Positions 1-14,888 of a DNA stretch of 15,065 bases are shown here, in pieces. The translations under genes were made by a program, and so were the position numbers. The number at the start of each line of letters is the position of its first letter. The first letter of the stretch is position 1. The notes under the pieces were generated by a model that was given only the letters and a program-made list of their open reading frames with translations, did not search any database and was not told the DNA's origin. The stretch is from Candidatus Heimdallarchaeota archaeon B3_Heim (GTDB taxonomy: Archaea; Asgardarchaeota; Heimdallarchaeia; Hodarchaeales; Hodarchaeaceae), in the NCBI GenBank assembly GCA_003144275.1, contig NJBF01000060.1, positions 1 to 15,065 of the forward strand, written 5' to 3'.

Positions 1-116
1 ATTTATCGGTTAGCGCGTGGCTGCCTGGCAGTACCCTTCTGGATAACCCGTACACTAGAGGCCCCCATACCCTGTTCCTCTCGTACTGAGGGCACGTTCC
101 TCTCACGAATCCAACA
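1..116 (-). repeat. 23S-rRNA-derived repeat, copy R0 (long type, cut by window edge)
   Basis: Nearly identical to 3715-3825 and 12620-12734. Reverse complement reads TGTTGGATTCGTGAGAGGAACGTGCCCTCAGTACGAGAGGAACAGGG; the sarcin-ricin loop is at 74-87. Confidence 0.92.
1..116 (-). rRNA. Partial 23S rRNA fragment (H94-H96, sarcin-ricin loop); not a full gene
   Basis: AGTACGAGAGGAAC followed by CTAGTGTACGGGTT...CTGCCAGGCAGC matches the LSU rRNA domain VI pattern. Protein genes lie directly upstream instead of domain V. Confidence 0.75.
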
Positions 117-139
117 CTGCTTCAAATATAGAATAAATA

Positions 140-544
140 TCATTTAATAACTTGGAATCCCGCTTGTTCGAAATGTGAATCATATGTAAAGGCAGTATTC
201 ATTCTTAAAGTATGCATAACAACAAAACTTGTACAATCAGTAAAGCTAAAGATTTTGTCCTGATGTTCCTTAAATAAATTCCATGCTTTTTCTTCCAATG
301 CCTCTAATATCCAGACAATTCGGATATTAGGAGAGTGTCTGATAGAATCCCCAATTCGGATAATCTCCTCATGACCCACTCTTCCCCGCAGCAGGGTATA
401 AAGTTCATCAAGGATATAATTAGTGGTTATCATCTTCCCATATCTGCCCTCTCTAATGTGATTTTCAATGACGAGGGCAGAAGAATTATTGATATCATTC
501 GTCACTTTCGAAGCATAAAAAGCCCCAGTATCGATAAAAATCAT
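140..544 (-). CDS. vapC: PIN-domain VapC toxin (COG2402 / VapC20-like)
   Basis: MIFIDT N-terminus, TTNYILDELYTLL, FSFTDCTSFVVM and AFTYDSHFEQAGF are PIN acidic motifs. GGTGA SD-like site upstream; lies downstream of a small antitoxin-like gene. Confidence 0.92.
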   Translation of the reverse strand: MIFIDTGAFYASKVTNDINNSSALVIENHIREGRYGKMITTNYILDELYTLLRGRVGHEEIIRIGDSIRHSPNIRIVWILEALEEKAWNLFKEHQDKIFSFTDCTSFVVMHTLRMNTAFTYDSHFEQAGFQVIK

Positions 545-581
545 TTAGCTCACCCTAATAAACTCCTAAATTAGATACACA

Positions 582-824
582 CTAGCTTGTCCTGTAAAGA
601 ATCTGGTCGACTTCTTGAGAGGCGTTTTCATTGTCTACTAGAGATTTAGTTTTAAGAGAAAAATAAGGATCATCAGCTACAACTTTATCACTTTTGAGAA
701 GAGCTAGAATTGCTTGTTTAACTGCTTCCTTGAGAGAAAGGTTATGTTGAGTCGCATAATCCCGAAGAATGGCATGCTCTTCAGGGGAAAGAGTAGTTTG
801 AACAACTTTTTCACGAGAGGTCAT
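582..824 (-). CDS. vapB: Ribbon-helix-helix/CopG-like antitoxin
   Basis: 80 aa, beta-strand then two helices (VVQTTLSPEEHAILRDYATQHNLSLKEAVKQAI) with an acidic C-terminus, directly upstream of vapC. Confidence 0.75.
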   Translation of the reverse strand: MTSREKVVQTTLSPEEHAILRDYATQHNLSLKEAVKQAILALLKSDKVVADDPYFSLKTKSLVDNENASQEVDQILYRTS

Positions 825-828
825 TTTA

Positions 829-853
829 CATGTCTCATATTACATGAGATATG
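829..853. promoter_or_regulatory. Inverted-repeat operator upstream of the antitoxin (putative TA autoregulation)
   Basis: CATGTCTCAT-ATTAC-ATGAGATATG (9/10 arm match), TTATAA at 860-865, extra half-site TGAGACAT at 897-904. Confidence 0.55.
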
Positions 854-935
854 ATGCACTTATAAATGTGATCAATTTTATCCGACAAAGCAATGGTGAG
901 ACATAAGACCAGAAGCCATTCATAAGGAAAGATGT

Positions 936-1919
936 GTGGAAATGGTAAAAATTCCAAAACTTGTAATGGAATGGCTGTTGGAGGAGAGTAATCCCTCGAT
1001 ACGGTATCGCACAATGCTAGAATTGCAGAATCTCCCAAATACTAGTGATAAGATCAAAGAAGCCAAAGAAGCGGTAATTGAGTATCCTGTGGTGCAAAAT
1101 ATTTTGAAAAAGATGCAGCCCGAAGGATATTGGGAGGTGAAAAAACGAGATGGCCGAGTACTAGGGGCAGGAGTGGAATATGCAGATTGGAGCACCACGC
1201 ATTATGTGTTGAGTTATTTAGTAGAACTAGGGGTAACAAAAGACAATCCCGAAGTGAAAAAGGCAGCAAATCGCTATCTATCCCTCCAACAACCAGACGG
1301 GGATTTCTGGAATCATTTTTCGTGTTTATATGGGGTAAATATTCGGACATTCATAAAATTGGGATTTCAAGAGGATCCACGGTTATTAAAGACGATTGAT
1401 TTACTAAAAACTATGATTCGCGAGGATCAAGGCTATTTGTGTGATATGCATAAAGGCAAACGGAAAACACGTCTGGTGAAAAGCTGTTATCGAGGCACCT
1501 TAAAAGTCCTACTTGCCCTCAGTGAACTCCAGCAGCTGTGGACAGAGTTGCATGCCAAACACTTAGTCAACTATTTTCTCGACCGGAATGTGCTATATAA
1601 AACAAAAAAACCTACTGAATTAGTGACGCGGGAAACAGGAAAGACTATCTTTCCCTTTTCCTACAGAGCAGGGCTTCTCGAAACCCTGTATGCCATAGCA
1701 AAAATGGGGTATGGGGAGGACTCACGGGTTCAAAACGCCTGGAACATTCTTCAGGACCATCGAACCTCTACTGGTCGATATATTCTGGACTGGACACCAG
1801 GTAAAACCACGAATCGGTATTTCTATCCTGGGAAAAAACAGGCAGAAAATAAATGGGTCACTTTCTATGCCTATTTGTGCCTGAAATATAAAGAAACGAG
1901 TAGTAAAAGAAATCCTTAG
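936..1919 (+). CDS. Prenyltransferase/squalene-cyclase-like repeat (alpha/alpha-barrel) protein, function unknown; ATG start likely at 942
   Basis: QW-like motifs MQPEGYW and LSLQQPDGDF in a helical repeat protein with C-terminal NKWVTFYAY. No DXDD cyclase motif seen. Confidence 0.6.
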   Translation: MEMVKIPKLVMEWLLEESNPSIRYRTMLELQNLPNTSDKIKEAKEAVIEYPVVQNILKKMQPEGYWEVKKRDGRVLGAGVEYADWSTTHYVLSYLVELGVTKDNPEVKKAANRYLSLQQPDGDFWNHFSCLYGVNIRTFIKLGFQEDPRLLKTIDLLKTMIREDQGYLCDMHKGKRKTRLVKSCYRGTLKVLLALSELQQLWTELHAKHLVNYFLDRNVLYKTKKPTELVTRETGKTIFPFSYRAGLLETLYAIAKMGYGEDSRVQNAWNILQDHRTSTGRYILDWTPGKTTNRYFYPGKKQAENKWVTFYAYLCLKYKETSSKRNP

Positions 1920-1925
1920 TAAAGC

Positions 1926-2098
1926 AAGACCACCAGACAGAAGAGCAGAATTTGTTTATACAACAACACAGATACGCTAGTAGACGCCTGAAGGCTATTT
2001 TCAAGAAAAAACGAGAGGACTGAAAATTTTTACATTAATCTAAGAAGATTAACCCGTGTGCGAGGAGTGGGAGGGTGTAACAAATACTGAACATGTCG
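1926..2098 (-). repeat. Repeat copy R1a (trailer plus extreme 23S 3' end)
   Basis: CCTGAAGGCT at 1987, ACGAGAGGACTG at 2011, CCCGTGTGCGA at 2053, CTGAACATGTCG ending at 2098. Upstream AAGACCA...CAGAATTT...ACAACACA..CGCTA is shared with R2. Confidence 0.9.
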
Positions 2099-2130
2099 GG
2101 AGAGACATGGATTACCTATCCTGTTACTTA

Positions 2131-2334
2131 TCATTCAACACATTTCTCTGTTCTTTCTCTATTTTGTGGTTTTGAAGCACGTCGAAAATGAAATAGCAAT
2201 GAATAAACTCCACCTATAATAACGATTACCCACCCCCAATAGAAAAAAATGTCTTCTGACAGTCCAAGAGCATTCTGATTTTCTAGTTCAAGGGCCTCTT
2301 GTATGCTGCAATCGTATTGTAAACGGGATTTCTT
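2131..2334 (-). pseudogene. Startless 3' remnant of a membrane-anchored protein gene
   Basis: Open frame without Met: ...SEDIFFYWGWVIVIIGGVYSLLFHFRRASKPQNRERTEKCVE*, a TM helix plus basic tail. Its 5' end runs into repeat R1b. Confidence 0.45.
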
Positions 2335-2387
2335 TTAAGAAACATCCCAGCACTCGTTTACCATCTCATGGTTATCGTCGCCAATCC
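2322..2387 (-). repeat. Repeat copy R1b (internal 23S H100/ES39 segment)
   Basis: AACGGGAT...ATCCCAGCACTCGTTTACCATCTCATGGTTATCGTCGCCAATCC matches 12491-12547 and 3573-3629. Confidence 0.88.
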
Positions 2388-2393
2388 GTAATC

Positions 2394-2425
2394 AAAAACT
2401 ATATATAGAAGTATACAAGTATACT
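2394..2425 (+). promoter_or_regulatory. BRE/TATA-like promoter with palindromic operator for the second TA operon
   Basis: AAAAA-C-TATATATA (2394-2407) followed by AGTATAC-AA-GTATACT (2410-2425). Confidence 0.55.
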
Positions 2426-2458
2426 AGTAAAGAGCGGAAGAAGTATTCTGGGATTAAA

Positions 2459-2746
2459 ATGACAGAGAAAGTTTCATTCTATGCAGACGAGAAAGCATGG
2501 GAAAGATTTAAAGATCAAGTTTATCGGTCTAGCGGAACCACACGAGCACTCAGTACTGAACTAAATAAACTTATTGAGGATAAAACATTAATTAAACTGG
2601 AAACACAATTAAAGGGATTAATACCAACCGAAGAGAAGTCCTCTTTCACTCTAGAAGAGATAAAAAAAGAAAGACCTACTCCTCCGGAAAAAGCAGAAAA
2701 CTTAATTCGCAAAATGAGGTCTGGGAATGCAGGTATATCTGGATAG
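2459..2746 (+). CDS. vapB: Putative antitoxin (RHH-like N-terminus)
   Basis: 95 aa, KVSFYADEKAWERFK strand-helix start, overlaps the downstream PIN gene by 20 bp. Confidence 0.7.
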   Translation: MTEKVSFYADEKAWERFKDQVYRSSGTTRALSTELNKLIEDKTLIKLETQLKGLIPTEEKSSFTLEEIKKERPTPPEKAENLIRKMRSGNAGISG

Positions 2747-3212
2747 TTCCATGATTGTTAAACGCTATATACAAGAGGAAGGAACCTCCTTTGCTGATTT
2801 CATTTATGAACAAGCAAATCAAGGGTACTTAACTATAACCTACAACCTTTTGAACATAGGAGAAGTATTGGGAGTATTCGACCAGTACTTAAACCGAAAA
2901 TGGATAACGAAAGACTCATTTGATGTACTTATAGCAAAATTTATTGATGAAATGCTACGACTTTTGCGCTTAGACAGGTTAATTATCATTCCAACCCATA
3001 GCACTCTCCAAATGGAGGCCTGGCCATTCATCTTAGAAAATCGCTTGTATATTGCTGATGCACTTCAATTAACAAGTGCATTGTATGTTAATACCCGATT
3101 ATTTGTCTCAGGGGATAAGGAATTAAACACAGTGGCACAGAAAAGCAATTTAGAGATATATCTCCCTACAAAGGAGAAAGAGATTATCCAAATGATAAGA
3201 AAACAAAGATAA
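2727..3212 (+). CDS. vapC: PIN-domain VapC toxin
   Basis: VYLDSSMIVKRY, NIGEVLGV, LYIADALQLTSA and FVSGDKEL PIN motifs. Confidence 0.9.
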   Translation: MQVYLDSSMIVKRYIQEEGTSFADFIYEQANQGYLTITYNLLNIGEVLGVFDQYLNRKWITKDSFDVLIAKFIDEMLRLLRLDRLIIIPTHSTLQMEAWPFILENRLYIADALQLTSALYVNTRLFVSGDKELNTVAQKSNLEIYLPTKEKEIIQMIRKQR

Positions 3213-3365
3213 GCCAGTAATAATGGTCGCCAACAATCTATTTTTCCTGAAGTGCCGTGAAACAGGAGGTACTCATTCTTGGACATTACAGGAGTTATCT
3301 TTAGACGAAACCGTCTTATCTAGAGAGATACATGAGAAAACTGCTCTTTCTAACAAAAATTAAGG

Positions 3366-3825
3366 AAGACCACAGGACATGAGATCAGAATTTTCTCAAG
3401 AAAACAACACATATCCGCTAATTGAATCCTGAAGGCTGTTTTTCTAAAAAAACGAGAGGACTGAAAATTTCCACATTTCTTCTAAGAAAGAGCCCGTGTG
3501 CGATTAGTAGCAGCTGACTGAACATGTCGATCGAAACCTCCACGCGTATTTCCAGTAGAAAATTGCTCTATCAACGGGATGTTCTATCCTAGCACTCGTT
3601 TACCGTTTCATGGTTATCATCGCCAATCCCCATGGCTTAACGCTGATGACAAAATGGATTCGTCTTTTCGAGGTCCGTTTCGTGCTTTTTCTTAAAGAAA
3701 GCATTCAGCACTTATCTATTAGCGCGTGGCTGCTGGGCAGTACCCTTCCTGATTGCCCGTACACTAGAGGCGCCCATACCCTGTTCCTCTCGTACTAAGG
3801 GCACGTTCCTCTCACGAATCCAACA
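3366..3825 (-). repeat. Repeat copy R2 (full length: 23S domain VI plus trailer)
   Basis: CCTGAAGGCT at 3428, ACGAGAGGACTG at 3452, rRNA-homologous part about 3490-3825, sarcin-ricin loop at 3783-3796. Confidence 0.95.
3490..3825 (-). rRNA. Partial 23S rRNA domain VI pseudo-copy (disrupted in H97)
   Basis: Reverse complement contains the SRL, GATAAGTGCTGAATGC, GTTGATAGAGC and GCTACTAATCGC as in LSU 3' ends. The conserved GCATCTAAG is replaced by a palindrome at 3688-3700. Confidence 0.75.
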
Positions 3826-3930
3826 AGGCCAATCTCCGAAAAATAGGTGAAATCAGAACTCTCAGAAGATCGGGTCAATATCAACAAATGAGTTTTACAC
3901 AACATGTATCTACACGATCAAAAATTGAGA

Positions 3931-4611
3931 TTAGTTAAAGATGGAGTATAATTTTACCCCATCCATTAAGATTAAAATTCCTAAAACGAGTAAAATAATA
4001 GCTAATCCTCTTTGTATCCAAAAGCTATATTTCATCCATCTTGCTAAGGTTGCTGATTTCACTTCAGTCCCTAATGCTCCTAAGACAATAAAAGGCAAGC
4101 CAAGACCAAAAGAATAAAGACAAAGAAGTATATATCCATAGACGAATTCACCTTGAATGGAGATCATCGTAAGAATAACTGAAATCATGGGTGTCATGCA
4201 AGGTATCCATGCCAAACCTGATATAAGTCCAAAAATACCGAACCCGATAATATTAAAGTTCTCAAAAACGCTCTTCAAAATCTCGGACTTGTTAAACTTT
4301 GATGTTCCAAAATCGAATCCAATTAATAGACCAAGAGCGAGTATGACAATTATAAACCCAGCAGAAATCCGAAATATGGGAAGAGAGAGGATTGTTTCAG
4401 GGAAAAGGGAAAGAATGAAATTATAACTCGAAAAAGTCAGGGTTAATCCTAAGGTATACAATACACCAGCCAAAACCCCTTTTCTTCGATCGATATTGTC
4501 GTTTGCTAATAGATACGAAATAAATATTGGGATTATAGCAAGGTGACACGGGCCTAGAAATGAAACAGCTCCCAGAGCGAAGGCGACGGGAATTAAAACT
4601 AGGTCGACCAT
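3931..4611 (-). CDS. ccdA: CcdA/DsbD-type transmembrane thiol-redox protein
   Basis: About six TM helices with SFLGPCHLAIIP and WIPCMTPMIS Cys-Pro motifs and YSFGLGLPF. Confidence 0.88.
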   Translation of the reverse strand: MVDLVLIPVAFALGAVSFLGPCHLAIIPIFISYLLANDNIDRRKGVLAGVLYTLGLTLTFSSYNFILSLFPETILSLPIFRISAGFIIVILALGLLIGFDFGTSKFNKSEILKSVFENFNIIGFGIFGLISGLAWIPCMTPMISVILTMISIQGEFVYGYILLCLYSFGLGLPFIVLGALGTEVKSATLARWMKYSFWIQRGLAIILLVLGILILMDGVKLYSIFN

Positions 4612-4613
4612 GG

Positions 4614-4931
4614 TTATTCTCTCTCTTTCATAATTATCTCAGGAGAAAGATTTAGAACCAACTTCTTTCTCAAAAATCCACCTAGCTTGATCTTAAATTC
4701 ATTAAGGTCTCTGTAAATGTCCAAAACTTCATTCTCAATTATGATCGGAATCTTGTGAATTTTCTCTAATGTGACGTTTTCTTGGTTTTGAAAATCATCC
4801 AGTTGAGAAAGGGGAATTATATTGATTTCCGGTTCCACAACAAAGCTACAACAACTCTCCGTTTTTTTAAGACGAATTAACATTCCATGGTTAGAGGGAA
4901 TTTTCTCTATCACTTTTTGATCTATTTCCAT
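4614..4931 (-). CDS. Small CC-motif protein (possibly HesB/IscA-like fold), function unknown
   Basis: 105 aa with ESCCSF, 2 bp from ccdA, same operon. Confidence 0.55.
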   Translation of the reverse strand: MEIDQKVIEKIPSNHGMLIRLKKTESCCSFVVEPEINIIPLSQLDDFQNQENVTLEKIHKIPIIIENEVLDIYRDLNEFKIKLGGFLRKKLVLNLSPEIIMKERE

Positions 4932-4955
4932 AGTCTGATCACGTGAATTTATGTC

Positions 4956-5660
4956 TCAGCTATTTTTCCGTTTGAGAATAATAAGAAAAATACAGATTAT
5001 ACTCCCCGTTAATCCCCAGGATAAATCTGTAGATTGAATAGATGTCGAAGGCGTCAATTGAGTCATGAGTTCTCCAGTATAATTGTCATTAGAATTTATT
5101 ATCAGCTTAAAGGAAAGAGCAATCCCCTCATAGTTAAAGATAATTTCGGAGTTATATGCTCCATTGCTATGGGTAAGTACGAAAGTGTCATTAGTCTCAG
5201 ATACGAGTGTAAAGTTCTTCCACCCCCAATCTTGTAATTGATACACAAGTGGTTTATAGGCATTACAACAGGCTCTAAAGACGTATTTAGGGATGATAAG
5301 TGGAGGAATTAATGAGAAAGGTGGTTCTTCATTCGCATATAGAATTGTACAATCCATATTACCATAGTACCCGTTATCTACTGCATCTGGTAATTTACCA
5401 ATAATAGCAATTATAACACTGCTTACTTCAAAGGAGAGAAATTCATCTCCATTTACACTAGTAATCTGGTAGCTAAGATTATCACCTTTCCTAAGATGAG
5501 GACTCCATTCTACTGGATAGGCCCCATTCGGAAAAGTGGTTTCACCTAAAGCTAGAGTATCTGGTGCCATTAGTGAGAATAATTGGAGCAGAATAATAAA
5601 CGCAAAAAGAAGAGAAAAATCTGTCCAGAAAATCTTCTTAACGGTATTTTCCTTCACCAA
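4956..5660 (-). CDS. Secreted/cell-surface protein with C-terminal membrane anchor
   Basis: N-terminal hydrophobic signal, Ser/Thr linker, C-terminal TM plus KRKNS tail, internal CC. Confidence 0.7.
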   Translation of the reverse strand: MVKENTVKKIFWTDFSLLFAFIILLQLFSLMAPDTLALGETTFPNGAYPVEWSPHLRKGDNLSYQITSVNGDEFLSFEVSSVIIAIIGKLPDAVDNGYYGNMDCTILYANEEPPFSLIPPLIIPKYVFRACCNAYKPLVYQLQDWGWKNFTLVSETNDTFVLTHSNGAYNSEIIFNYEGIALSFKLIINSNDNYTGELMTQLTPSTSIQSTDLSWGLTGSIICIFLIILKRKNS

Positions 5661-5739
5661 TCTTTTCCACCATTGATTATTTGTTTAAACAAAGATGAAA
5701 ACCCATGTTTTGAGGAGCTATATTAATACTTTGATATAT

Positions 5740-5753
5740 GTCGATGTATCGAC
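5740..5753. promoter_or_regulatory. Palindromic operator, second copy of the putative ArsR site
   Basis: GTCGAT-GT-ATCGAC. 5741-5752 is the exact reverse complement of TCGATACATCGA at 7900-7911. Confidence 0.55.
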
Positions 5754-5863
5754 CTTTCCGCATTCAAACAGAAAGGAAAATTGATAAATCTGGACGAGGC
5801 AAGATGGGTTAATACCCATTTGACAATGAACTTTTCTGGGTCTTTATATGAAAGATGTCTGAA

Positions 5864-6133
5864 TTATAATACATCACCAATTGGTAATGTTTTTCCAAGG
5901 AGCTTAAGGAGAGTTTGTTCTAGTAAGAAAACTGGGATGGATTCTCCATTGATCACAACCGTTTGGCCTCCAACACCAAGTTTGTGAGCACGGGAAGAAT
6001 CTGAGGTTAAGCTTTCTATTTCCAAGTAGTCTTTATACTTCATTAGGATATCCCACACATTGTCAATCCATGTTGCAAATGAACAACCGCATACTCCTAC
6101 TGGGGAAAACACCTCGACTTTGGGCTTCTTCAT
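5864..6133 (-). CDS. Small thioredoxin-fold protein (CxC motif)
   Basis: KVEVFSPVGVCGCSF...TVVINGE pattern, adjacent to a second thioredoxin-fold gene. Confidence 0.65.
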   Translation of the reverse strand: MKKPKVEVFSPVGVCGCSFATWIDNVWDILMKYKDYLEIESLTSDSSRAHKLGVGGQTVVINGESIPVFLLEQTLLKLLGKTLPIGDVL

Positions 6134-6150
6134 TTTGAGTTCACTAATAT

Positions 6151-6399
6151 CTATTCAGATTCTTGAAGCAATGCTACAAGCTTGTTTACTGGGAGATAGC
6201 GTCCAGAAAGAACAACTTTTCCATCCACAGCTAAAGCCGGAGTAGCGGAAATTCCCCTTTGGATCACATCCGCCATATCAGTGTTATAAAGAATTTTTAC
6301 GTGTGTCCAACCTAGCTTTTCTACTGCTTCTTCGGCGCTCTTTTTTAATGCTTTACATTTAGCACATCCAGGTCCGAAGACTTCTATTTCCTTTATCAT
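6151..6399 (-). CDS. MTH895/ArsE-type redox-active disulfide protein (thioredoxin family)
   Basis: IEVFGPGCAKC CxxC motif and GISATPALAVDGKVVLSGR; typical neighbour of DUF318 permeases. Confidence 0.88.
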   Translation of the reverse strand: MIKEIEVFGPGCAKCKALKKSAEEAVEKLGWTHVKILYNTDMADVIQRGISATPALAVDGKVVLSGRYLPVNKLVALLQESE

Positions 6400-6450
6400 A
6401 TTTATTTACACCTTCAAAATTTTCAATGTATAGTCTAATTGTTTCTACTC

Positions 6451-7866: not shown

Positions 7867-7870
7867 TTAT

Positions 7871-8045: not shown

Positions 8046-8438
8046 ATGGATATGGAAACTCCTGTGTTAGAAGCAAGACTTAAAGATCTAATTGATGCCG
8101 AATTAGTTTCATGGAAATCTGTTTCAAAGCGATTAAACTACCTTAATCAGCTAAAAATTAAATTAACATCATTAGATGAACAAGCGGATTTCAAGGAGTT
8201 TGGAAAGATGATCAAAGCTCTGAATCATCCTATTCGGATTCAGATTCTCCTTGCTATTGATAAAGGAGTGACATGTGCCTGTGAATTGGAGTATTTAACT
8301 GAACTTGCCCAAGCGACAATCTCTCATCACTTATCTTTACTAGAAGATGCAAATCTGATAGCCCGAATTAAGGAAGGTAAACGAAACTTTTTTTCAATAA
8401 AAAACCAACAGCTTCTTGATTCTCTTATAACGTTCTAG
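8046..8438 (+). CDS. arsR: ArsR/SmtB-family transcriptional repressor
   Basis: ALNHPIRIQIL, TCACEL (CxC) and QATISHHLSLLEDANLI HTH; divergent from the permease. Confidence 0.9.
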   Translation: MDMETPVLEARLKDLIDAELVSWKSVSKRLNYLNQLKIKLTSLDEQADFKEFGKMIKALNHPIRIQILLAIDKGVTCACELEYLTELAQATISHHLSLLEDANLIARIKEGKRNFFSIKNQQLLDSLITF

Positions 8439-8475
8439 TGCTCAGAAATATATGCATTTGATTGAACTTGAAGCG

Positions 8476-8720
8476 TGACCACTATCGCTTGCGAGGAAAT
8501 ATTAACTTTCTAAAAAACTCACGAACACACGCTATTAGACTCCTGAAGGCTTTTTTTATGAAAAAACGAGAGGACTGAAAATTTCCACACTATTCCAAGA
8601 AGAGACACCCTTGTGCGATTAGTGGGAGTGTGTATTAAACACTAAACATGTCGACGGGCCTCCACGCGTATTTCTTTAAAGAAAATTGCTCTAATAGCGG
8701 AATTTCTCTCTAGAAGAGCA
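8476..8720 (-). repeat. Repeat copy R3 (trailer plus about 110 bp of 23S 3' end)
   Basis: CCTGAAGGCT at 8542, ACGAGAGGACTG, TGTGCGATTAG, AACATGTCGA, CCTCCACGCGTA and TTGCTCTA; homology fades near 8700-8720. Confidence 0.9.
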
Positions 8721-8737
8721 TGGGAAAAAAGGAAAAA

Positions 8738-9637
8738 TCATGCCTCTTTCACATAACGGTGGGTGAGATACTTAACGAAAAGGTATGGATCCTCGTTTTT
8801 ATCAGCTCGTGCAAGGGCATTGTAGTATTTCGTACGCTCCTTGTTCCTGAAGTTGTACATCGGGAATTTGTGTTTATACAGGACAAAATTCATCAGCATT
8901 CGTGACATCCGTCCATTACCATCCCAATAGGGGTGAATGCAGACAAATTTGTAATGGACGAGGGCCGCAAGCTCTACAGGATGGAGTGTTTCTTTCGCCT
9001 CGTGATACCACTGCAAAAATTCTTTCAGTAGAGGAATCAATTCAACTGGTAATGGCGGAATAAAATCACTACCTGTTATCCTGACCTGTTCGGTACGGAG
9101 CTCCCCTGCTATATCTGGTCGGGAATTCTTGAACAGAATGTGATGCCATTCAAAGATTAAATTAAAGTGCAAATCGCCTGATGTCACGACATACCGTCTC
9201 ATTTCTTCAAAGAGTGTTTGGTGACTTTTAGCTTCGAGGATGTCGTTTAATGGACGATTTGGGGCTTGGTTTTCTAGCAATAGCTGAGCTGTTTCTCGGT
9301 GTGTTAGAGTACTTCCTTCAATCCGATTTGAGTCATAGGTAAAACGGACGATGAAATCTTCATAATATTTCTCAACTGCAGTTTTAGGTGTCTTTTTAAG
9401 CATTTGCTGATGTTTCTGTTTAACTGTGCTTAGTTGTGACTTAAATTCTTCCATAAATAAGTCGTGGTGAAAATCTTCTATGATGATGTCGATGTTATCA
9501 GGAATTTCTTGTCCTAAGTACTTCGTTCGACTACTAGTACGGTGGCCGTTCCGCACGGTATGCACTAGCGCATAATATTTGCGACCATTTTGTTTAATTG
9601 TTTTTATCCGTACCATAAGTAATTTGTTACCCCACAT
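8738..9637 (-). CDS. fic: Fic/Doc-family protein with N-terminal basic domain; ATG start likely at 9616
   Basis: HPYWDGNGRMSR catalytic motif (HPFxDGNGR type) and SNRIEG inhibitory (S/T)xxxE(G/N) motif. Confidence 0.92.
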   Translation of the reverse strand: MWGNKLLMVRIKTIKQNGRKYYALVHTVRNGHRTSSRTKYLGQEIPDNIDIIIEDFHHDLFMEEFKSQLSTVKQKHQQMLKKTPKTAVEKYYEDFIVRFTYDSNRIEGSTLTHRETAQLLLENQAPNRPLNDILEAKSHQTLFEEMRRYVVTSGDLHFNLIFEWHHILFKNSRPDIAGELRTEQVRITGSDFIPPLPVELIPLLKEFLQWYHEAKETLHPVELAALVHYKFVCIHPYWDGNGRMSRMLMNFVLYKHKFPMYNFRNKERTKYYNALARADKNEDPYLFVKYLTHRYVKEA

Positions 9638-9674
9638 TTTATATATTTTTTGGTTTTTATAATAAATGTGGGGT
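9629..9674. promoter_or_regulatory. 11-bp inverted repeat bracketing the fic TATA-like element
   Basis: ACCCCACATTT (9629-9639) and AAATGTGGGGT (9664-9674) with an AT-rich spacer containing TTTTATATAT. Confidence 0.55.
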
Positions 9675-9745
9675 TAGATTAGGATCTAGTTTGTATTCAT
9701 GATAGGTTATGAGTGCAAGAAGTATAAAGAAGAATAACCAGACGG

Positions 9746-9828
9746 AAGACCAGAAGACGCAGGAACACACGTGTTACGACTCCTTAAGGCTATTACTTTT
9801 CAGTAAAAGAGAGGACTGACACCTTCCC
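9746..9828 (-). repeat. Repeat copy R4 (trailer only, shortest)
   Basis: AAGACCAG...AACACAC...ACGACTCCTTAAGGCTATTACT..AGTAAAAGAGAGGACTG matches the R3 and R6 trailers. Confidence 0.8.
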
Positions 9829-9847
9829 GCCCTCGAACCGTTTTTTA

Positions 9848-10681
9848 TCAATCTTTCTTTCTCGTTTCCATTCTCATGAAAAAAAACCACGACAGGATTA
9901 AAGCAATTGTAATAATTATCCCGAAGAATCTAAATGCTTCATTCACCTCCTCAATAGTTGAAATTTGCTCTTCTTGAGTCATAAACATGTGATTTGTGAT
10001 TATATAAACTCGGAAGTAAGTAGAGAACTGTAACATTTCCTCGGTGGCAAATCCCAAGTAAATTGAGCTGAAAATGAAGAAAGGAATCACAAAAAAAACG
10101 ATAATTGGGAAACCACTCCCCAGTCCACTTAAAGATCTGTGTTTCATCACTAAAGTATTACCAACCACAGTAACTATAAGGGGGACAGTTGAGACAATGA
10201 GTAAAGTAACTAGAGCAAGCAAGAATCTGTCCAATGATATTGGTAATTCTTGTTGCCAAATAAGAAATGAGATTACACATCCGATCCATGTACACAAACT
10301 TGTAAAGAGGAGGACAAGCGCTGTTGTGCTTACTTTTCCAATAAACACTTCAAACCTTTTAGTTGATGTGAATAAAAATTCAAGAGCTGACTCATTGAGA
10401 AATAATTCTTGAATGACAACAATTGATACCAGAATATTGACTACATAAGCGAATGTGACATATATTTGAAGAACATGACCAACAAACCACTCATATCCAT
10501 TAAGATGTAGGTAGATCTCTAATGAGGCGTTCTGACCGGCAAAACTGACATATAATAGGGTGGGGACAAGACAAAAACTTAGGAGAATTAAGGCGCGATT
10601 TGAGAACAAATACCGCTTTGTTTCATACTTTGCAATTATTAAGCTGTTCCTGATAATGAACCAGATTTCCCAGATGACCAC
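9848..10681 (-). CDS. ABC-2 type transporter permease
   Basis: About six TM helices and EFLFTSTKRFEVFIGK motif; adjacent to an ABC ATPase. Confidence 0.75.
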   Translation of the reverse strand: MVIWEIWFIIRNSLIIAKYETKRYLFSNRALILLSFCLVPTLLYVSFAGQNASLEIYLHLNGYEWFVGHVLQIYVTFAYVVNILVSIVVIQELFLNESALEFLFTSTKRFEVFIGKVSTTALVLLFTSLCTWIGCVISFLIWQQELPISLDRFLLALVTLLIVSTVPLIVTVVGNTLVMKHRSLSGLGSGFPIIVFFVIPFFIFSSIYLGFATEEMLQFSTYFRVYIITNHMFMTQEEQISTIEEVNEAFRFFGIIITIALILSWFFFMRMETRKKD

Positions 10682-10710
10682 TTTTGCAGGATTGTTAACT
10701 TTCGTCTTTC

Positions 10711-11361
10711 TCAGCTCTCCCTTTGAATTGGAAAATGGATTTTTCGATAATTCGTAAAATGAGCTTTCTCATGTGAAGCAGCGATTACAATGTTTCCTTT
10801 CTCAGTATAGTTGTTCAGATATTCTTCTAAATAACGCTTCATTTGATCATCCAAATTCGCATATGGTTCATCAAGGAGTAAGACTTTTGGTTCATTTAAC
10901 ACGGCAGAACATAAGCCCATCCGTCGTCGCATCCCTTCGCTATATACACTGACATCAATATGGCTCCATTTTTCAAGTCCAAATTGTTCAAGTAACCGCG
11001 TTGCTTTCTCTTTGGGGGATTTAATTCCCATAAGTCTGCCTAAATAACATAAAAAATTAAGTCCAGATATTCCAGCATGAAATTTGCATTCCTCAGGCAT
11101 AAAACCTATCATATTCAACAATGTTCTACTTCGACGCTTTGTATTGGAACCAAATACCACAATATTTCCAGAGGTAGGCATCAACAATGTTCCTATCATT
11201 CTTAAAAGAGTTGATTTTCCAGATCCATTTGGACCTAATAATAACACTAACTCTCCTTCGGAGATTGTTACCTCAAGATTATCAATTACTCGTACTTTAA
11301 GCCCTGCCCTCCATATTCTAAAACTCTTGCTTACATTTTGAACAGAGATTTCTCCAACCAA
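10711..11361 (-). CDS. ABC transporter ATP-binding protein
   Basis: Walker A GPNGSGKS, signature YSEGMRRR, Walker B LLLDEP, H-loop ASH. Confidence 0.93.
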   Translation of the reverse strand: MVGEISVQNVSKSFRIWRAGLKVRVIDNLEVTISEGELVLLLGPNGSGKSTLLRMIGTLLMPTSGNIVVFGSNTKRRSRTLLNMIGFMPEECKFHAGISGLNFLCYLGRLMGIKSPKEKATRLLEQFGLEKWSHIDVSVYSEGMRRRMGLCSAVLNEPKVLLLDEPYANLDDQMKRYLEEYLNNYTEKGNIVIAASHEKAHFTNYRKIHFPIQRES

Positions 11362-11516
11362 CTAAGTGGCACCCTTACTTCTGTGAATACAAATTATTAC
11401 TCGCGAACGAACAGCTTAATGAAGTGATTATAAGAAGTGTAAAAAGATTCCTTTTAAAAAAGGTTCATTCTAAGTGTGAAAGAGAATTTTTTAATTAAAA
11501 CTTAATCGGGAGACTA

Positions 11517-12353
11517 ATGCGAAAATTCTACTCAAAGAATTTCTTAATTGTCTTTTTTCTCTTATTATACCTCTATCCAATTCAAAGCATACATTGTACT
11601 TCCCATAATGAACCAAGACTTATCCCTTTTATCGGAATGGTTTTAAAATATAGACTGGAAGCGCATCTTGAAGTAGGATTACCTATACCAATACCAGTCA
11701 TTGCAAACTGGACAGTTGTCTGGGAACAGTATAATACATCAAACCCCGATATTTTTATATCTCAATTAACTTTAACATCGCTTTATTTGACTTTGTACGG
11801 TGGAATTGGTCAAGAATCTGGTATCATTGTAGAGAATATCACTTCTCGCCGGGTATTATGGGTTGAGATGGAAAATACGACCTTTTTAGAGAAAATGTAT
11901 TCACTATATTATGCTCCACATCGACCCAATTATTCTCCTTTTTATATTCCCACAGAAGATCTAGGTATCAACAGTAGTATTGGTATCTACAATTATTCAA
12001 TGACTGTTATTGCTAAAGATAGAATTGCAGTGAGTGAATTTGGTTATCGTGATGTGTGGATTATACATAAAAATGTGACAAGTTCAAGTGCGGTGAACCA
12101 TTTTATTAGCTTAATCTATGATGAGATTACAGGTGTTCTTGTGGGAGGCAGTCTTTACACCCATTGGTTTTGGGAGAATGGTACTGAGCATATATACAGT
12201 GTTAAAATTATTTGTCAGTCTACAAATGCATTAGCAAGGCATTTAATCATCATTAGACCCAATGAACTACTTGCTATACTAATTAGTTGTGTACCAATAA
12301 TCCCCTCTTTAATGAAAATAATGAAGTTCAAGGAAATCAGAGGTGGTCTCTAG
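11517..12353 (+). CDS. Secreted/membrane-anchored hypothetical protein
   Basis: Signal-peptide-like N-terminus, beta-rich body, C-terminal hydrophobic segment with basic tail. The stop codon abuts R5. Confidence 0.65.
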   Translation: MRKFYSKNFLIVFFLLLYLYPIQSIHCTSHNEPRLIPFIGMVLKYRLEAHLEVGLPIPIPVIANWTVVWEQYNTSNPDIFISQLTLTSLYLTLYGGIGQESGIIVENITSRRVLWVEMENTTFLEKMYSLYYAPHRPNYSPFYIPTEDLGINSSIGIYNYSMTVIAKDRIAVSEFGYRDVWIIHKNVTSSSAVNHFISLIYDEITGVLVGGSLYTHWFWENGTEHIYSVKIICQSTNALARHLIIIRPNELLAILISCVPIIPSLMKIMKFKEIRGGL

Positions 12354-12734
12354 TTTTTTTTCTAAGAAAACGAGAGGACTGACCATTTCCACATTTCTTC
12401 TAAGAAATAGTCCGTGTGCGAGGAGTGGGAGTGTGTCATAAACACTGAACATGTCGACCGAGGGCTCCACGCGTACACAACTGCTCTGTCAACGGGATGT
12501 TCTATCCCAGCACTCGTTTACCATCTCATGGTTACCGTCGCCAGTCCCCATGGCTTTGCGCTGATGGCAAAATGGATTCGTCTTTTCGAGGTTCGTTTCG
12601 TACTTAGATGCATTCAGCACTTATCGGTTAGCGCGTGGCTGCCGGGCAGTACCCTTCCGGATAACCCGTACACTAGAGGCGCCCATACCCTGTTCCTCTC
12701 GTACTAAGGGCACGTTCCTCTCATGAATCCGACA
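12354..12734 (-). repeat. Repeat copy R5 (full 23S domain VI plus trailer lacking the CCTGAAGG end)
   Basis: ACGAGAGGACTG at 12370, rRNA-homologous part about 12409-12734, sarcin-ricin loop at 12692-12705. Confidence 0.95.
12409..12734 (-). rRNA. Partial 23S rRNA domain VI copy (best preserved)
   Basis: Reverse complement has the SRL, CTGCCCGGCAGC and GATAAGTGCTGAATGCATCTAAGTACGAAAC (close to canonical GATAAGTGCTGAAAGCATCTAAGCACGAAAC), then an extended H98 and H100-H101. Confidence 0.8.
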
Positions 12735-12796
12735 ACTAGAATAGAAGAAAAAGTATTGGATTTCATAACGTAATAGGCTTTAAGAGAGGATCTAGA

Positions 12797-13285
12797 TTAA
12801 ATAATTCTTGAACGTAACCTTAAGATTCGTTTAGCTTTTTGTTTGGGGATAATTTTCCACTCACGAAATAACCTGACTACCTGATAAAGCTCATTGGGAG
12901 AAATCTCTCCTTCCAGTAGCAAAAAACCAAAATAATCAGCAATATGTAGTGCTTTTAATGCGCCATTCATCGTATTTTCTAGCAACATTGGATGATCTTC
13001 TGTAATAATAGGATAACCAGAGAATTCACCATATTCCAAGAGTGAAGCATCAGCTTCATCAAAACACTGTTTAAGAAATTTGTTGAAATGTTTGTTTAAC
13101 CTCGGAAGGATTGTCACATTACGAAAAAAGACCTCTTCATCAGGAAAACGATGGAGTAACTCCTTGTGAACATCATGTGTAATCATAAATTCTTTTCGCT
13201 CCATTATTCTCGAAATTAAGTTAGAAAAACCATTATCTCGTAAAAGAAGGATGTAGAACCATGAAAGAGTATCAACTCCAAACAT
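12797..13285 (-). CDS. PIN-domain (DUF3368-like) protein; true start likely MFGVDT at 13285
   Basis: GVDTLSW, THDVHKEL, DEADASLL and IITEDH acidic PIN pattern. Confidence 0.72.
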   Translation of the reverse strand: MFGVDTLSWFYILLLRDNGFSNLISRIMERKEFMITHDVHKELLHRFPDEEVFFRNVTILPRLNKHFNKFLKQCFDEADASLLEYGEFSGYPIITEDHPMLLENTMNGALKALHIADYFGFLLLEGEISPNELYQVVRLFREWKIIPKQKAKRILRLRSRII

Positions 13286-13307
13286 GGTTTGAAAAACCAA
13301 CACAAGC

Positions 13308-13315
13308 TTTATAAA
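13308..13315. promoter_or_regulatory. Palindromic TATA box shared by two divergent, likely leaderless genes
   Basis: TTTATAAA lies 23-30 bp from both ATG 13285 (-) and ATG 13338 (+). Confidence 0.6.
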
Positions 13316-13337
13316 CATATTGGCCTGTTATCTAACC

Positions 13338-13667
13338 ATGAGTCAACTAAGTTTCAAATTTCCAGAAAAAGAACGCAGTTTTCTAAAATGGTATTCAGAG
13401 AAAACCTCCGAACCACTGGGAACAATATATCGCAAAGTAACACTGGAACACTTCATACATTGGAAAAAAACTGTCTTGATAGAGGCGTATCTCAATGGTT
13501 CAATCGGAATAAAACAATTTGCTAACTTAGGGGGAATGACATTCAATGAATGTTTCCTCTTACTTAAACAAAACAATATCGACCCTCCGTATAATGAATT
13601 GTTAGATATCCATTCAGCTCAAGTGATGGAAGAACAGCTTATACAACCAAAGAAAAACCTCAAGTGA
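13338..13667 (+). CDS. UPF0175-like antitoxin (RHH plus HTH); start likely MSQLSF at 13338
   Basis: QLSFKFPEKE strand-helix N-terminus. AYLNGSIGIKQFANLGGMTFNECFLLLKQNNI resembles the UPF0175 HTH. Confidence 0.68.
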   Translation: MSQLSFKFPEKERSFLKWYSEKTSEPLGTIYRKVTLEHFIHWKKTVLIEAYLNGSIGIKQFANLGGMTFNECFLLLKQNNIDPPYNELLDIHSAQVMEEQLIQPKKNLK

Positions 13668-13706
13668 TTACCGATATCTACCGTAAACTCAATTTCATGA
13701 TATTTT

Positions 13707-13818
13707 TACGACTCCCGGAGGCTATTACTTCTAGTAAACGAGAGGACTGCCCATTTCCACACTAATTTTTCATTAGTAGCCCGTGTGCGATTAGGGGGAG
13801 TTAAATTTCTAAGACTCC
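13707..13818 (-). repeat. Repeat copy R6 (trailer plus a few rRNA bases)
   Basis: TACGACTCCCGGAGGCTATTACT..AGTAAACGAGAGGACTGCCCATTTCCACA..GCCCGTGTGCGATTAG. Confidence 0.88.
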
Positions 13819-13853
13819 TTAGGCAAACCAACAAGAGGAAGGAAAGTTTCTTC

Positions 13854-14648
13854 TTAGACAGAAACACAAGAAAATAATGTAAAATTCTTGTAGGAGGAAA
13901 AACCAAGCTTTTCGTAAAGACGGATTGCAGGAACATTATCTTGAACAACAAATAAAGTTATGAATCTTTTCGTTTTCAAAATCTCATTTCCTATAGTAGA
14001 GACCAGGTTTTTGCCTAAAGATTTGCCACGATATTCGGAAATGACCAGGACATTCCCTAAATGTGCCAACTTAGGTGTTTCAAAGTGAGTTCCTCCACAA
14101 GCAACAATTTGATCATTAATCTCCTGAAAAAAGTAGAAATTGCTCTCTAGTTGAATCGAACTCCACGGGAATGTATGATTAGCTTGATAGAATTCATCAA
14201 TACGACTTAAATCCTTAAGAGAGGCATGTATTAACGAATGATCCGAATCCAGAAAGTTTTCTCTTTTTCTATCTGTAATCATACAGATTTCAGAACTTTT
14301 TTCTTGGATACGAAAATGACTACTCAAAACCTTTTCAGTTAAAGAAGGGGAGACCAATATAAACTTTTCAGGGAGTATATGGAACAGGTGAGAAAGGATA
14401 ACGGCTTCAGTTTCTTCGGATGATTTTGGTATAACAACAGAAGAACAGTCGAATCCTTTAAAAACAGTGAAAAGGGAAATTAGGGCCTCTCTATCAAAAA
14501 CACCATAAACATCCGTAAGATCAATGCAAGGAGGGAATAAATCTCCTAGTAAAAACAAATTATCAAAATAGTCTTTTGTGGCTAGTCTAATACAGTTATT
14601 TATTAGGAATTGATTATTGCGAGGAATATGCTTAATTTTCAACTCCAT
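13854..14648 (-). CDS. GNAT-family acetyltransferase (C-terminal GNAT domain)
   Basis: LGNVLVISEYRGKSLG acetyl-CoA motif and VVQDNVPAIRLYEKLGF. Confidence 0.9.
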   Translation of the reverse strand: MELKIKHIPRNNQFLINNCIRLATKDYFDNLFLLGDLFPPCIDLTDVYGVFDREALISLFTVFKGFDCSSVVIPKSSEETEAVILSHLFHILPEKFILVSPSLTEKVLSSHFRIQEKSSEICMITDRKRENFLDSDHSLIHASLKDLSRIDEFYQANHTFPWSSIQLESNFYFFQEINDQIVACGGTHFETPKLAHLGNVLVISEYRGKSLGKNLVSTIGNEILKTKRFITLFVVQDNVPAIRLYEKLGFSSYKNFTLFSCVSV

Positions 14649-14719
14649 TGCTCCAATAAGAAAATACGTCTCTATCCTTAATAACTCATTTTGTTAATCC
14701 AGTTATTCATGGTGGATGT

Positions 14720-14888
14720 CCTGAAGGCTATTTCTGCAAAAGAAACGAGAGGACTGAAAATTTCCACAACTCTAAAAAGAAAGAGCCCGTGTGCGAGGAG
14801 TGGTAATATGTCTTAAACATTAAACTTGTCGGTTGAAATTTCTATGTATAATTCTTGAATAAGACCCCTCTCTCATCGGGATTGTTCT
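14720..14888 (-). repeat. Repeat copy R7 (trailer plus degenerate 23S 3' end)
   Basis: CCTGAAGGCT at 14720, ACGAGAGGACTGAAAATTTCCACA, GAGCCCGTGTGCGAGGAGTGG, and CTCTCTCATCGGGATTGTTCT (14868-14888), which resembles CTCTGTCAACGGGATGTTCT. Confidence 0.88.

Follow-up and report, generated by a model that had tools for sequence, protein, structure and literature searches.

The window analyzed here, a stretch of 15,065 nucleotides, is a series of small gene cassettes separated by eight junctions in the same orientation, and every junction derives from the 3′ end of the rRNA operon itself, carrying a relic copy of it or being cut off within one. Of the explanations weighed below, we lean slightly toward one in which the window represents an inner section of a large array on the chromosome that starts directly behind the single 23S gene, with accretion at the 23S 3′ end resembling that of tRNA-gene islands and reshuffling by general homologous recombination between the tails.

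Source and Analysis of the Sequence

The window originates from Candidatus Heimdallarchaeota archaeon B3_Heim (GCA_003144275.1, contig NJBF01000060.1, positions 1 to 15,065, forward strand), and the host group is one genus in Hodarchaeales (Heimdall-group Asgard archaea). It is an entire 15-kb MAG contig, C65 in a genome of 3.95 Mb and 103 contigs. Fragments of 23S were called with Infernal cmscan against LSU_rRNA_archaea and trailer copies with an nhmmer trailer profile, while 23S remnants were placed on an LSU-fragment profile and cargo families were assigned via Pfam. The integrase survey covered PF00589 on the array contigs of six genomes, together with tblastn over ~230 kb of arrays, and serine recombinases were covered by Pfam scans of the larger array ORFs. 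Distribution was surveyed in a 301-genome Asgard sample.

Junctions and Cassettes of the Window

The junctions contain seven trailer copies (nhmmer E 8e-8 to 8e-36) and three 23S 3′ fragments (3-127, 3498-3825, and 12431-12734), all on the minus strand (Table 1). Eight or nine repeat copies had originally been predicted; eight hold, and the possible ninth (~1138-1157) lies inside an ORF and is no copy. The junctions had also been equated with LSU domain VI. They do derive from the 23S 3′ end, but most are mainly trailer, with little or no 23S proper. Junction 0 matches C9:14-129 at 95% identity.

The cassettes measure 0.9-5 kb, carry no integrase and mostly consist of one gene or one operon each. 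The PIN/antitoxin-like pair next to junction 0 has an orthologous pair in the arrays of G013, G003, and G018. The Fic and GNAT cargo recognized initially was matched by Pfam families, and two of the three proposed toxin-antitoxin (TA) pairs are PIN-type pairs, the third being without a significant family match. Similarly, only the ATPase of the proposed ABC exporter was identified, its permease having no significant family match; neither the 277-aa nor the 278-aa ORF of this region matches a Pfam family. The cassette at 3931-8438 encodes a DsbD-type membrane protein, three unknown ORFs, a thioredoxin, and an ArsP-type permease on the minus strand, with a divergent ArsR gene on the plus strand and an operator palindrome. 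The "ars cluster" seen here by the original prediction is thus accurate for ArsR, the ArsP-type permease, the thioredoxin, and the DsbD-type protein, but includes no ArsA, ArsB, or ArsC. This cassette has a chromosomal paralog, 75% identical, on C31.

Table 1. Junctions and cassettes of the window, with the matches that define them.
Feature	Position	Strand	Evidence
Junction 0	3-127	-	5′ part of domain-VI fragment, cut by contig start; LSU-fragment profile 8-132
PIN toxin (140-544) and small antitoxin-like gene (582-824)	140-824	-	PF01850 E 3e-9; DUF6290 weak
Cassette gene, 327 aa, unknown function	936-1919	+	Sub-threshold Pfam match only; ortholog in G013 array
Junction 1	1931-2387	-	Full trailer 1931-2070, nhmmer E 1e-33; decayed 23S at 2050-2102 and 2318-2387
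95-aa gene and PIN-domain gene (second TA-like pair)	2459-3212	+	PF01850 E 2e-5 for 2727-3212
Junction 2	3371-3843	-	Full domain-VI fragment ~3491-3843, cmscan 139.3 bits
Junction 2 trailer	3371-3510	-	nhmmer E 8e-36
Multi-gene cassette	3931-8438	both	PF02683, PF13192, PF03773 (E 6e-70), PF01022
Junction 3	8487-8705	-	Trailer 8487-8626, nhmmer E 4e-33; last ~80 nt of 23S, LSU profile 253-333
Junction 3 23S remnant	8608-8705	-	LSU-fragment profile
Fic-domain protein cassette	8738-9637	-	PF02661 E 7e-23
Junction 4	9741-9827	-	Partial trailer, profile 41-137; nhmmer E 8e-8
277-aa ORF and ABC ATPase (minus), 278-aa ORF (plus); cassette(s)	9848-12353	both	ATPase PF00005 E 1e-27
Junction 5	12315-12752	-	Best-preserved domain-VI fragment 12408-12752; cmscan 169.5 bits, E 4e-50
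Junction 5 trailer	12315-12428	-	nhmmer E 7e-21
Small ORFs, unknown function (candidate third TA pair)	12797-13667	.	No significant Pfam match
Junction 6	13709-13797	-	Trailer 5′ two-thirds only, profile 2-90; nhmmer E 9e-18
GNAT acetyltransferase cassette	13854-14648	-	PF00583 E 2e-14
Junction 7	14670-14883	-	Trailer 14670-14803, nhmmer E 5e-25; last ~80 nt of 23S, LSU profile 254-335
Junction 7 23S remnant	14784-14883	-	LSU-fragment profile

Identity of the Junction Repeat

At its maximum the repeat comprises ~330 nt of 23S domain VI and a ~145-nt trailer, with cmscan matches at LSU model positions 2721-2973. It then begins just past the universally conserved GAGACAGGUCGG, near model position 2700, where domain VI starts, and ends at the foot of the pre-23S processing stem. 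The ~330 nt of 23S are followed by the 3′ strand of helix 1, then by a hairpin that is conserved, and finally by ~100 nt pairing with the 5′ leader of the 23S. Aligned to the true 23S of the relative G007, the long fragments all begin in a ~17-nt zone right after GACAGGTCGG. Although its arm sequences differ, the hairpin, located after CGCACACGGGC, is maintained with 5-8 bp in 25 of 30 copies, and every trailer copy has an oligo-T run after CUCUCG in addition to hairpins. The plus-strand motif ACGAGAGGAC, which resembles the sarcin-ricin loop, was considered as domain VI and rejected, as it belongs to the trailer/leader stem.

In archaea, the leader and trailer of pre-rRNA form a helix, the processing stem, that is cut by the splicing endonuclease. 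The trailer of the repeat is the 3′ strand of this stem and base-pairs with that genome's own 23S leader. Its complement lies on contig C88, in the 5′ leader of 23S, with a duplex energy of -65 kcal/mol for the trailer of C9; most trailer copies pair with the leader better than shuffles do (z -2 to -10.7), and the junction 2 trailer of the window is the best partner of its own genome's leader (-52.9 kcal/mol, z -10.7). The stem is normally present as a single copy per operon, whereas here more than 20 orphan copies are spread over tens of kb. The trailer is truncated at one or other end in about half of them, and displaced 23S remnants begin at many positions and have internal deletions, the trailer parts being better preserved than the neighboring 23S parts. 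Copies inside one genome are only 70-88% identical, and at this level homologous recombination would not be expected to be efficient, a point against the reshuffling favored here.

Anchoring and Distribution of the Arrays

Genome-wide, nhmmer detects 23 trailer copies, which are not scattered but clustered on four of the 103 contigs, as the original prediction had anticipated (C65, C9, C79, and the first 2.7 kb of C50), with uniform orientation within each contig. An intact 23S gene had been expected at the end of the array, toward higher window coordinates, and one G007 contig bears out this position of the gene: C8 (54.7 kb) ends inside the true 23S (model 2545-2987, 328 bits), behind which an array of >51 kb carries ~25 tail copies. 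The link between array and true 23S is absent from the assembly of the window's own MAG, and the anchoring is read from G007. An environmental contig additionally joins fragment-like sequence to true 23S (loose end at 12734). Two domain-VI fragments on the G007 contig are 92% and 90% identical to the true 23S, one with a mutated sarcin-ricin loop. Between the true 23S and a full fragment that is well preserved, there are four junctions consisting of trailer only. Trailer copies farther away are no less identical to the resident trailer (94% at 29.5 kb, 71% at 1.7 kb), and therefore plain accretion with the newest copy next to the gene is an incomplete account.

A second domain-VI copy is found in eight of 20 same-genus genomes and in one of 280 other Asgard genomes, where the two loci are 1.5 Mb apart and probably represent two operons. 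In the 301-genome sample, extra 23S tails are thus essentially confined to the host genus.

Cassette Turnover and Competing Explanations

As expected of a cassette array rather than of a static gene order, both the content and the order of cassettes differ between relatives. The close relative G013 has blocks in common at 92-96% identity but with other neighbors, its flanking chromosome being colinear, and G003, G018, and G020 have cassettes in common, in other orders. We located 14 change-points between orthologous junctions, at repeat coordinates -11, -3, 7, 10, 26, 36, 39, 41, 57, 61, 73, 77, 99, and 113, a scatter along the repeat that general homologous recombination fits better than a site-specific system. 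Neither circular cassettes nor recent insertions were seen among the arrays.

The arrays encode no dedicated recombinase. The cassettes were correctly predicted to lack an integrase: PF00589 has no match on any array contig in six genomes, tblastn finds no remnant, and the larger array ORFs scanned with Pfam are all cargo. The original prediction went on to propose an integron-like site-specific system with cassettes mobilized in trans, in which a recombinase encoded elsewhere would use the trailer as an attC/attI-like site and move single cassettes at a defined core. The small, integrase-free, mostly one-gene or one-operon cassettes would suit such a system, as would the conserved ~145-nt element with its structure-conserving hairpin at each junction, the near-constant 5′ boundary of the long fragments, and the several tyrosine recombinases on non-array contigs of the window's genome. 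However, this part of the prediction was not supported, and we consider it unlikely. The breakpoints extend over >120 nt of the repeat (-11 to +113) instead of marking one core, and conservation of the trailer is already accounted for by its role as a processing-stem strand. There are no R''/R' inverted cores or dif-like palindromes near the junctions, no recurrent inverted-repeat site, no end-to-end self-complementarity of the repeat, and no recurrent 11-mers beyond the rRNA-derived parts. Genes run in both directions (~40% are antisense to the rRNA), and some cassettes bring along a regulator. Despite its large array, G003 has just one detectable tyrosine recombinase, which is XerA-like; moreover, the rRNA operon on C88 has no recombinase gene beside it, no integrase occurs on C88, C9, or G007:C8, and the array begins at the 23S gene with no adjacent intI or attI.

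It is rather improbable that the arrays are ordinary integrase-bearing islands or proviruses that serially targeted the 23S 3′ end and whose integrases and backbones have since decayed. Islands classically leave a regenerated gene with displaced pieces of the target behind it in direct orientation (PMC4383910), tycheposons are documented as stacked and degenerate, with partial copies of the target scattered among them (10.1101/2020.12.28.424599), and the 23S remnants are visibly decayed, but the ~230 kb of arrays examined in six genomes contain no integrase gene or pseudogene fragment. Replication and virion genes were likewise not found in the arrays, the repeat is unmatched in viral contigs, and ~25 junctions per 50 kb is much denser than island-sized elements would give. 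Neither the window nor the array contigs contain a tRNA or tmRNA. Introns and retroelements that target rRNA (group I/LAGLIDADG, R2-like) were rejected, as the array sits behind the gene and no homing endonuclease or reverse transcriptase ORFs were found among the scanned array proteins. Retention of the trailers as RNA or DNA signals (terminators, insulators against rRNA read-through, or EndA sites), with the array a by-product of local duplication, is very improbable: the oligo-T run and hairpins of each copy, the leader complementarity kept in many copies, and the survival of trailers beyond adjacent 23S parts would agree with it, but truncation at one end or the other affects about half of the copies, close relatives differ in cassette content, and most array genes have no paralog elsewhere in the genome, so local duplication cannot supply the cargo. 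Finally, we give almost no credence to repeat-induced assembly or binning chimeras of rRNA fragments with unrelated contigs. The window contig does begin inside a repeat, and its ~128-nt overlap with C9 is consistent with a k=127 graph branch; however, the same architecture occurs in at least 10 independently assembled MAGs, the arrays lie inside contigs of 54, 113, and 525 kb that run on into chromosomal genes, and junctions are included in syntenic blocks.

Proposed Mechanism

In the accretion and recombination model that we favor, DNA carrying its own tail copy would recombine into the resident tail, regenerating a complete, processable 23S and displacing the old tail downstream, as in tRNA-gene islands. 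The many direct tail copies would then offer portable homology to the general recombination machinery of the host, and blocks of one or more cassettes could be looped out, re-inserted, deleted, duplicated, or exchanged between any two copies; this reshuffling is suggested by the scattered breakpoints and mosaic repeats. The 23S parts of displaced tails decay through substitution and deletion, a step directly visible in the arrays. The proposal covers the stacking and reshuffling of genes that already carry a tail. The near-constant 5′ boundary of the long fragments holds across genomes whose fragments are only 70-80% alike and could reflect a site-specific cut or crossover, although an ancestral boundary subject to concerted evolution would account for it just as well.

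Relation to Known Systems and Significance

Integrons in archaea have reportedly been described by Ghaly et al. in 2022. The arrays resemble chromosomal integrons in forming a long series of small, mostly single-function cassettes at one locus, with a ~100-150-nt repeat after each cassette, variable content among close relatives, and TA cassettes. They differ in that no intI lies beside the array, the cassettes are in both orientations, some being multi-gene with their own regulator, and there is no single crossover point; integron cassettes are promoterless and mostly point the same way. Furthermore, the repeat is not an imperfect palindrome of the attC type, with its R''/L'' and L'/R' boxes and one crossover in R', but a copy of a host RNA-processing element that pairs with the distant 23S leader. 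In staphylococci, SCC elements insert at the 3′ end of rlmH (orfX) through ISS/att sites and CcrAB recombinases, and the dif/pdif modules of Acinetobacter are Xer-dependent, using XerCD and ~28-bp dif-like sites in which two inverted arms of ~11 bp flank a spacer of 6-8 bp. Both similarly stack recombinase-less modules at one conserved site bounded by its copies, but they use short defined sites and known recombinases, whereas no short palindromic site recurs here.

Islands at tRNA and tmRNA genes regenerate the 3′ part of the gene and leave a displaced fragment downstream in direct orientation (Islander/TIGER, PMC4383910), and the tycheposon islands of Prochlorococcus form tandem, degenerate arrays with scattered partial target copies (10.1101/2020.12.28.424599). 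The likeness extends to the regenerated 3′ part of a structural RNA with a displaced direct copy downstream (G007, and the window with its three fragments), to successive events that stack while old copies decay and scatter, and to accessory cargo such as TA systems, Fic, transporters, and surface proteins. In contrast, the gene targeted here encodes 23S rRNA, the duplicated unit of ~450 nt runs through the whole 3′ strand of the processing stem instead of measuring tens of nt, there is no integrase or integrase remnant, and the units are gene-sized. Crossover points are scattered within the trailer, and the 5′ ends of the long fragments fall within ~17 nt. With the operon's own tail as junction and no recombinase, the logic of the displaced gene tail is therefore extended to rRNA and to a recombinase-free regime. 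We found no published description of such arrays behind 23S in the literature. More tentatively, the 3′ end of the single rRNA operon, comprising 23S domain VI and the processing-stem strand, might be a dedicated gene-capture platform in several archaeal lineages, a functional integron analogue without its own integrase that possibly uses host recombination or an undiscovered enzyme, and extreme rRNA conservation as universal homology for the exchange of cassettes across species.

In practical terms, MAG assemblies break at rRNA operons because of the arrays, and rRNA annotation can be misled by orphan 23S fragments. Asgard archaea, the lineage closest to eukaryotes, have genomes that are large and rich in genes. 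Among the array cargo are TA systems, Fic, small Ras-type GTPases, Hcp, surface beta-helix proteins, transporters, and redox enzymes. With 20-30 accessory cassettes stacked behind the only 23S gene, such a hot spot would give new genes a major and easily located way into this lineage.

Nature of the repeat

The cassettes of this contig are separated by displaced copies of the end of the 23S rRNA gene and of the sequence behind it. Two archaeal LSU rRNA model matches were found in the window, both covering model positions 2721-2973 (domain VI), along with a third 23S fragment. By repeat finding and alignment, these fragments are outnumbered by an element of ~145 nt, the trailer, which lies directly behind the 23S 3' end in long copies and elsewhere stands with little or no 23S sequence; the domain VI part and the trailer together are called the tail. 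A trailer profile search of the window returned copies on the minus strand only, seven in number (E 8e-8 to 8e-36); shorter 23S remnants adjoin four of them. With the fragment cut by the contig start included, the eight to nine junctions of the original prediction were counted correctly, and its module size of 0.9-4.6 kb is close to the measured spacing of ~1-5 kb (largest start-to-start gap, 5.1 kb).

When fragments from six genomes are aligned to the true 23S of the relative G007, the long form starts in a ~17-nt zone right after the universally conserved GAGACAGGUCGG and spans all of domain VI, including an Asgard-type expansion in helix 98. The trailer begins with the 3' strand of helix 1 (CCACUCMUCGCACACGGGCU), followed in 25 of 30 copies by a hairpin with a 5-8 bp stem whose arm sequences differ; RNAalifold on the junction alignment did not call this variable hairpin because its arms are out of register, and it was detected by a per-copy stem search. 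The last ~100 nt of the trailer are complementary to the spacer directly upstream of the 23S 5' end on C88, a contig of this genome that carries the 16S gene and, at its end, the first 1,149 positions of the 23S gene (duplex -65 kcal/mol). Most copies pair with this leader at z -2 to -10.7 against shuffles, the best being a window copy. This complementarity identifies the trailer as the pre-23S processing stem's 3' strand. The plus strand of each window repeat resembles the 23S leader itself, and the sarcin-ricin-loop-like plus-strand motif ACGAGAGGAC is part of the processing stem, not of domain VI.

The 23S remnants have many different start positions and internal deletions, roughly every second trailer copy is truncated, and tail copies within one genome are only 70-88% identical. 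In three domain-VI fragments from two genomes an AU-rich hairpin, longer by 12 nt, stands in place of the conserved helix-97 loop GCAUCUAAGC, a shared change which means either that a non-canonical tail variant was copied to several junctions or that this is the real 23S sequence of the lineage.

Coordinates of repeats, cargo and related features (L003 and L004, array stretches of this genome with the Ras-family GTPase and Hcp cargo, whose coordinates are given jointly; L005, contig C50; L009, G007 contig C8; L017, G020 contig C106)
Feature	Sequence	Position	Strand	Evidence
Third 23S fragment	window	3-127		cut by contig start
Trailer copy with best leader pairing	window	3371-3510	-	z against shuffles
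LSU rRNA (archaeal model) match	window	3498-3825	-	Infernal, 139.3 bits
Altered helix-97 loop	window	3690-3720		
Altered helix-97 loop	L003	130-160		
Altered helix-97 loop	L017			
Palindrome, 10-bp arms	window	7867-7900		perfect arms
LSU rRNA (archaeal model) match	window	12431-12734	-	Infernal, 169.5 bits
Ras-family small GTPase	L003	3913-4428		
Ras-family small GTPase	L003	4931-5545		
Ras-family small GTPase	L004	4044-5327		
Ras-family small GTPase	L004	11097-11609		
proC	L005	822-1673		
Second thioredoxin/ArsP-type permease/ArsR module	C31 (this genome)	12697-15149		75% DNA identity
Insertion in true 23S, 337 nt	L009	~14270-14610		

The array and its cargo in this genome

In the source MAG (3.95 Mb, 103 contigs, 36% GC) the trailer profile finds 23 copies, all of them on the window contig C65, on C9 (7 kb) and C79 (12 kb), or within 2.7 kb of the start of C50 (67 kb), with a single orientation per contig. 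C9 starts inside a domain-VI copy and overlaps the window by ~128 identical nt; over its first 13 nt it departs from the true 23S, as known from G007 and an environmental contig. Related MAG records carry k127 contig names. On C50 three repeats are followed by chromosomal genes. These pieces fit a single array of at least 37 kb that was split by the assembler at its repeats.

Array genes lie in both orientations and mostly have no paralog elsewhere in the genome. The Fic and GNAT genes predicted as cargo were both recovered; of the three toxin-antitoxin pairs, Pfam supports two PIN-type TA-like pairs and leaves the third a candidate, and of the ABC exporter the ATPase was confirmed. The supposed ars cluster comprises ArsR, an ArsP-type permease, a thioredoxin and a DsbD-type protein. 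The gap that separates the ArsP-type permease gene from the divergent ArsR gene contains a perfect palindrome (TATATATCGA..TCGATATATA), probably the ArsR operator. A second copy of the thioredoxin, permease and ArsR genes lies on the chromosome, and its 75% identity marks the array module as a diverged archaeal paralog rather than a bacterial import. As a tracer of mobility the module was uninformative, since its homologs are ordinary chromosomal genes across the class. Further cargo includes Ras-family small GTPases, four in this genome and 19 across the examined arrays, and a homolog of Hcp (PF05638, E 9e-28), a type VI secretion protein and as such unusual for an archaeon. At the distal array end on C50, proC (pyrroline-5-carboxylate reductase), the only one detectable in the MAG, lies between two trailer repeats and is followed by a PEMT-like methyltransferase cassette; in the relative G013 an additional repeat lies past the gene that comes next, for a GlcD-like oxidase.

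Anchoring at the 23S gene and distribution

The original prediction expected an intact 23S gene towards higher coordinates, and in G007 the end of a true 23S and an array do share one contig. C8 (54.7 kb) breaks off within the true 23S, of which it retains model positions 2545-2987 (328 bits), and ~25 tail copies follow over 51 kb, in the same orientation except one; this single contig shows the architecture of 23S followed by array. Among these copies are two full domain-VI fragments, which share 92% and 90% identity with the true 23S; one has a mutated sarcin-ricin loop. Trailer-only junctions separate the true 23S from a full fragment that is well preserved. Copies farther away are no less similar to the resident trailer, so that either blocks of several cassettes are moved together or insertions go in at any point along the array. 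In the helix 91-92 region (near model position 2650), ~50 nt upstream of the zone where displaced fragments start, the true 23S itself has a 337-nt insertion that could be an ORF-less rRNA intron. Other arrays are embedded in larger contigs of 113 kb (G003) and 525 kb (G010).

With the tail of this genome as query, multiple copies were found in at least 10 of 21 genomes of the genus and in none of 20 genomes from other families of the class; G010 and G009 contain arrays built from sequence versions of the element that are their own. A DNA search of 301 Asgard genomes, in which at most two candidates per genome were scored, recovered a second domain-VI copy in 8 of 20 same-genus genomes and in 1 of 280 others, where the two loci lie 1.5 Mb apart and are probably two operons. 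In two closed genomes of the Heimdallarchaeum type, from another family, the 40 kb after the 23S contain no tail copies. Within the genus, G009, G015 and G006 are without an assembled 23S, trailer-like repeats being present in G009. A complete 23S on a 6.3-kb contig of G001 (C57, L018) was rejected as that genome's own gene, having ~62% domain-VI identity to two fragments of the same MAG; on this sequence comparison it is probably a mis-binned contig or contamination.

Cassette turnover and mode of movement

The original prediction proposed comparing cassette order and content between strains, and both vary between G013 and this genome. The flanking chromosome is colinear, and the two share blocks at 92-96% identity (peptidase S9; a PIN pair with a 327-aa gene; an Hcp block; proC/PEMT) whose neighbours differ, while several cassettes occur in one genome only. 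Further cassettes are common to G003, G018 and G020 in other orders, and marine-sediment contigs hint at a relative with a different junction behind the 327-aa gene. A simple deletion model did not fit the difference at the first junction between this genome and G013.

The cassettes had been described as integrase-free, which is borne out: in six genomes the array contigs carry no tyrosine recombinase (PF00589), no remnant turned up in ~230 kb of arrays when the six integrases of this genome served as tblastn queries, and none of ~60 array ORFs is an integrase, all scanned proteins being cargo by Pfam. Nor was a dif-like, palindromic or other short recurrent site found outside the rRNA-derived parts, and no IMG/VR contig matched the repeat pattern as a viral or extrachromosomal carrier would. 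Logan contigs of marine-sediment runs, in which at most 21% of words were present, gave no evidence for circular cassettes; their joints lie inside repeats at 90% likeness, with mostly short sides, and come from relatives with other neighbours (e.g., 1886 joined to 8538 in X4). In 14 orthologous junction pairs whose contexts differ, the points at which identity changes from low to high scatter between repeat coordinates -11 and 113, and no site is preferred.

The scattered change-points, the missing recombinase and site, the mixed gene orientation and the decayed remnants fit general homologous recombination between tails together with neutral decay; an integron-like, site-specific reaction fits these data less well. 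Tail copies would recombine by loop-out, Campbell-type re-insertion and unequal exchange. By analogy with tRNA-gene islands (PMC4383910; 10.1101/2020.12.28.424599), an incoming tail may initially replace the resident 23S tail, a step also suggested by the extent of the unit, whose limit coincides exactly with the base of the processing stem; for the only 23S to mature, an insertion has to rebuild this stem. Homologous recombination would account for tail-bearing cassettes, not for the first acquisition of a tail by a gene. Some observations do not fit. The 70-88% identity between copies within a genome is low for homologous recombination and counts against it, and the trailer-only junctions ahead of the full fragment in G007 are a misfit, as are the lack of a distance trend in trailer identity there and the sole proC of the MAG sitting within the array. 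Long fragments have nearly the same 5' boundary even in diverged genomes, for which either a site-specific cut or concerted evolution could be responsible.

Relation to known systems

The outcome resembles that of a chromosomal integron, but the array fails every defining feature of one except variable cassette content. Islands at tRNA genes, including stacked and decayed arrays, leave the same footprint; the present array, in contrast, targets 23S rRNA, has an RNA-processing element within its duplicated unit and lacks integrases. We found no description of such arrays in full-text searches or in the Asgard mobile-element papers examined. Overall, the observation of an array is confirmed and its first interpretation is partly supported: the array is genuine, is conserved in the genus and has apparently not been described, and we regard it as a novel variant of gene-tail-anchored island accretion whose mechanism is probably recombinase-independent.
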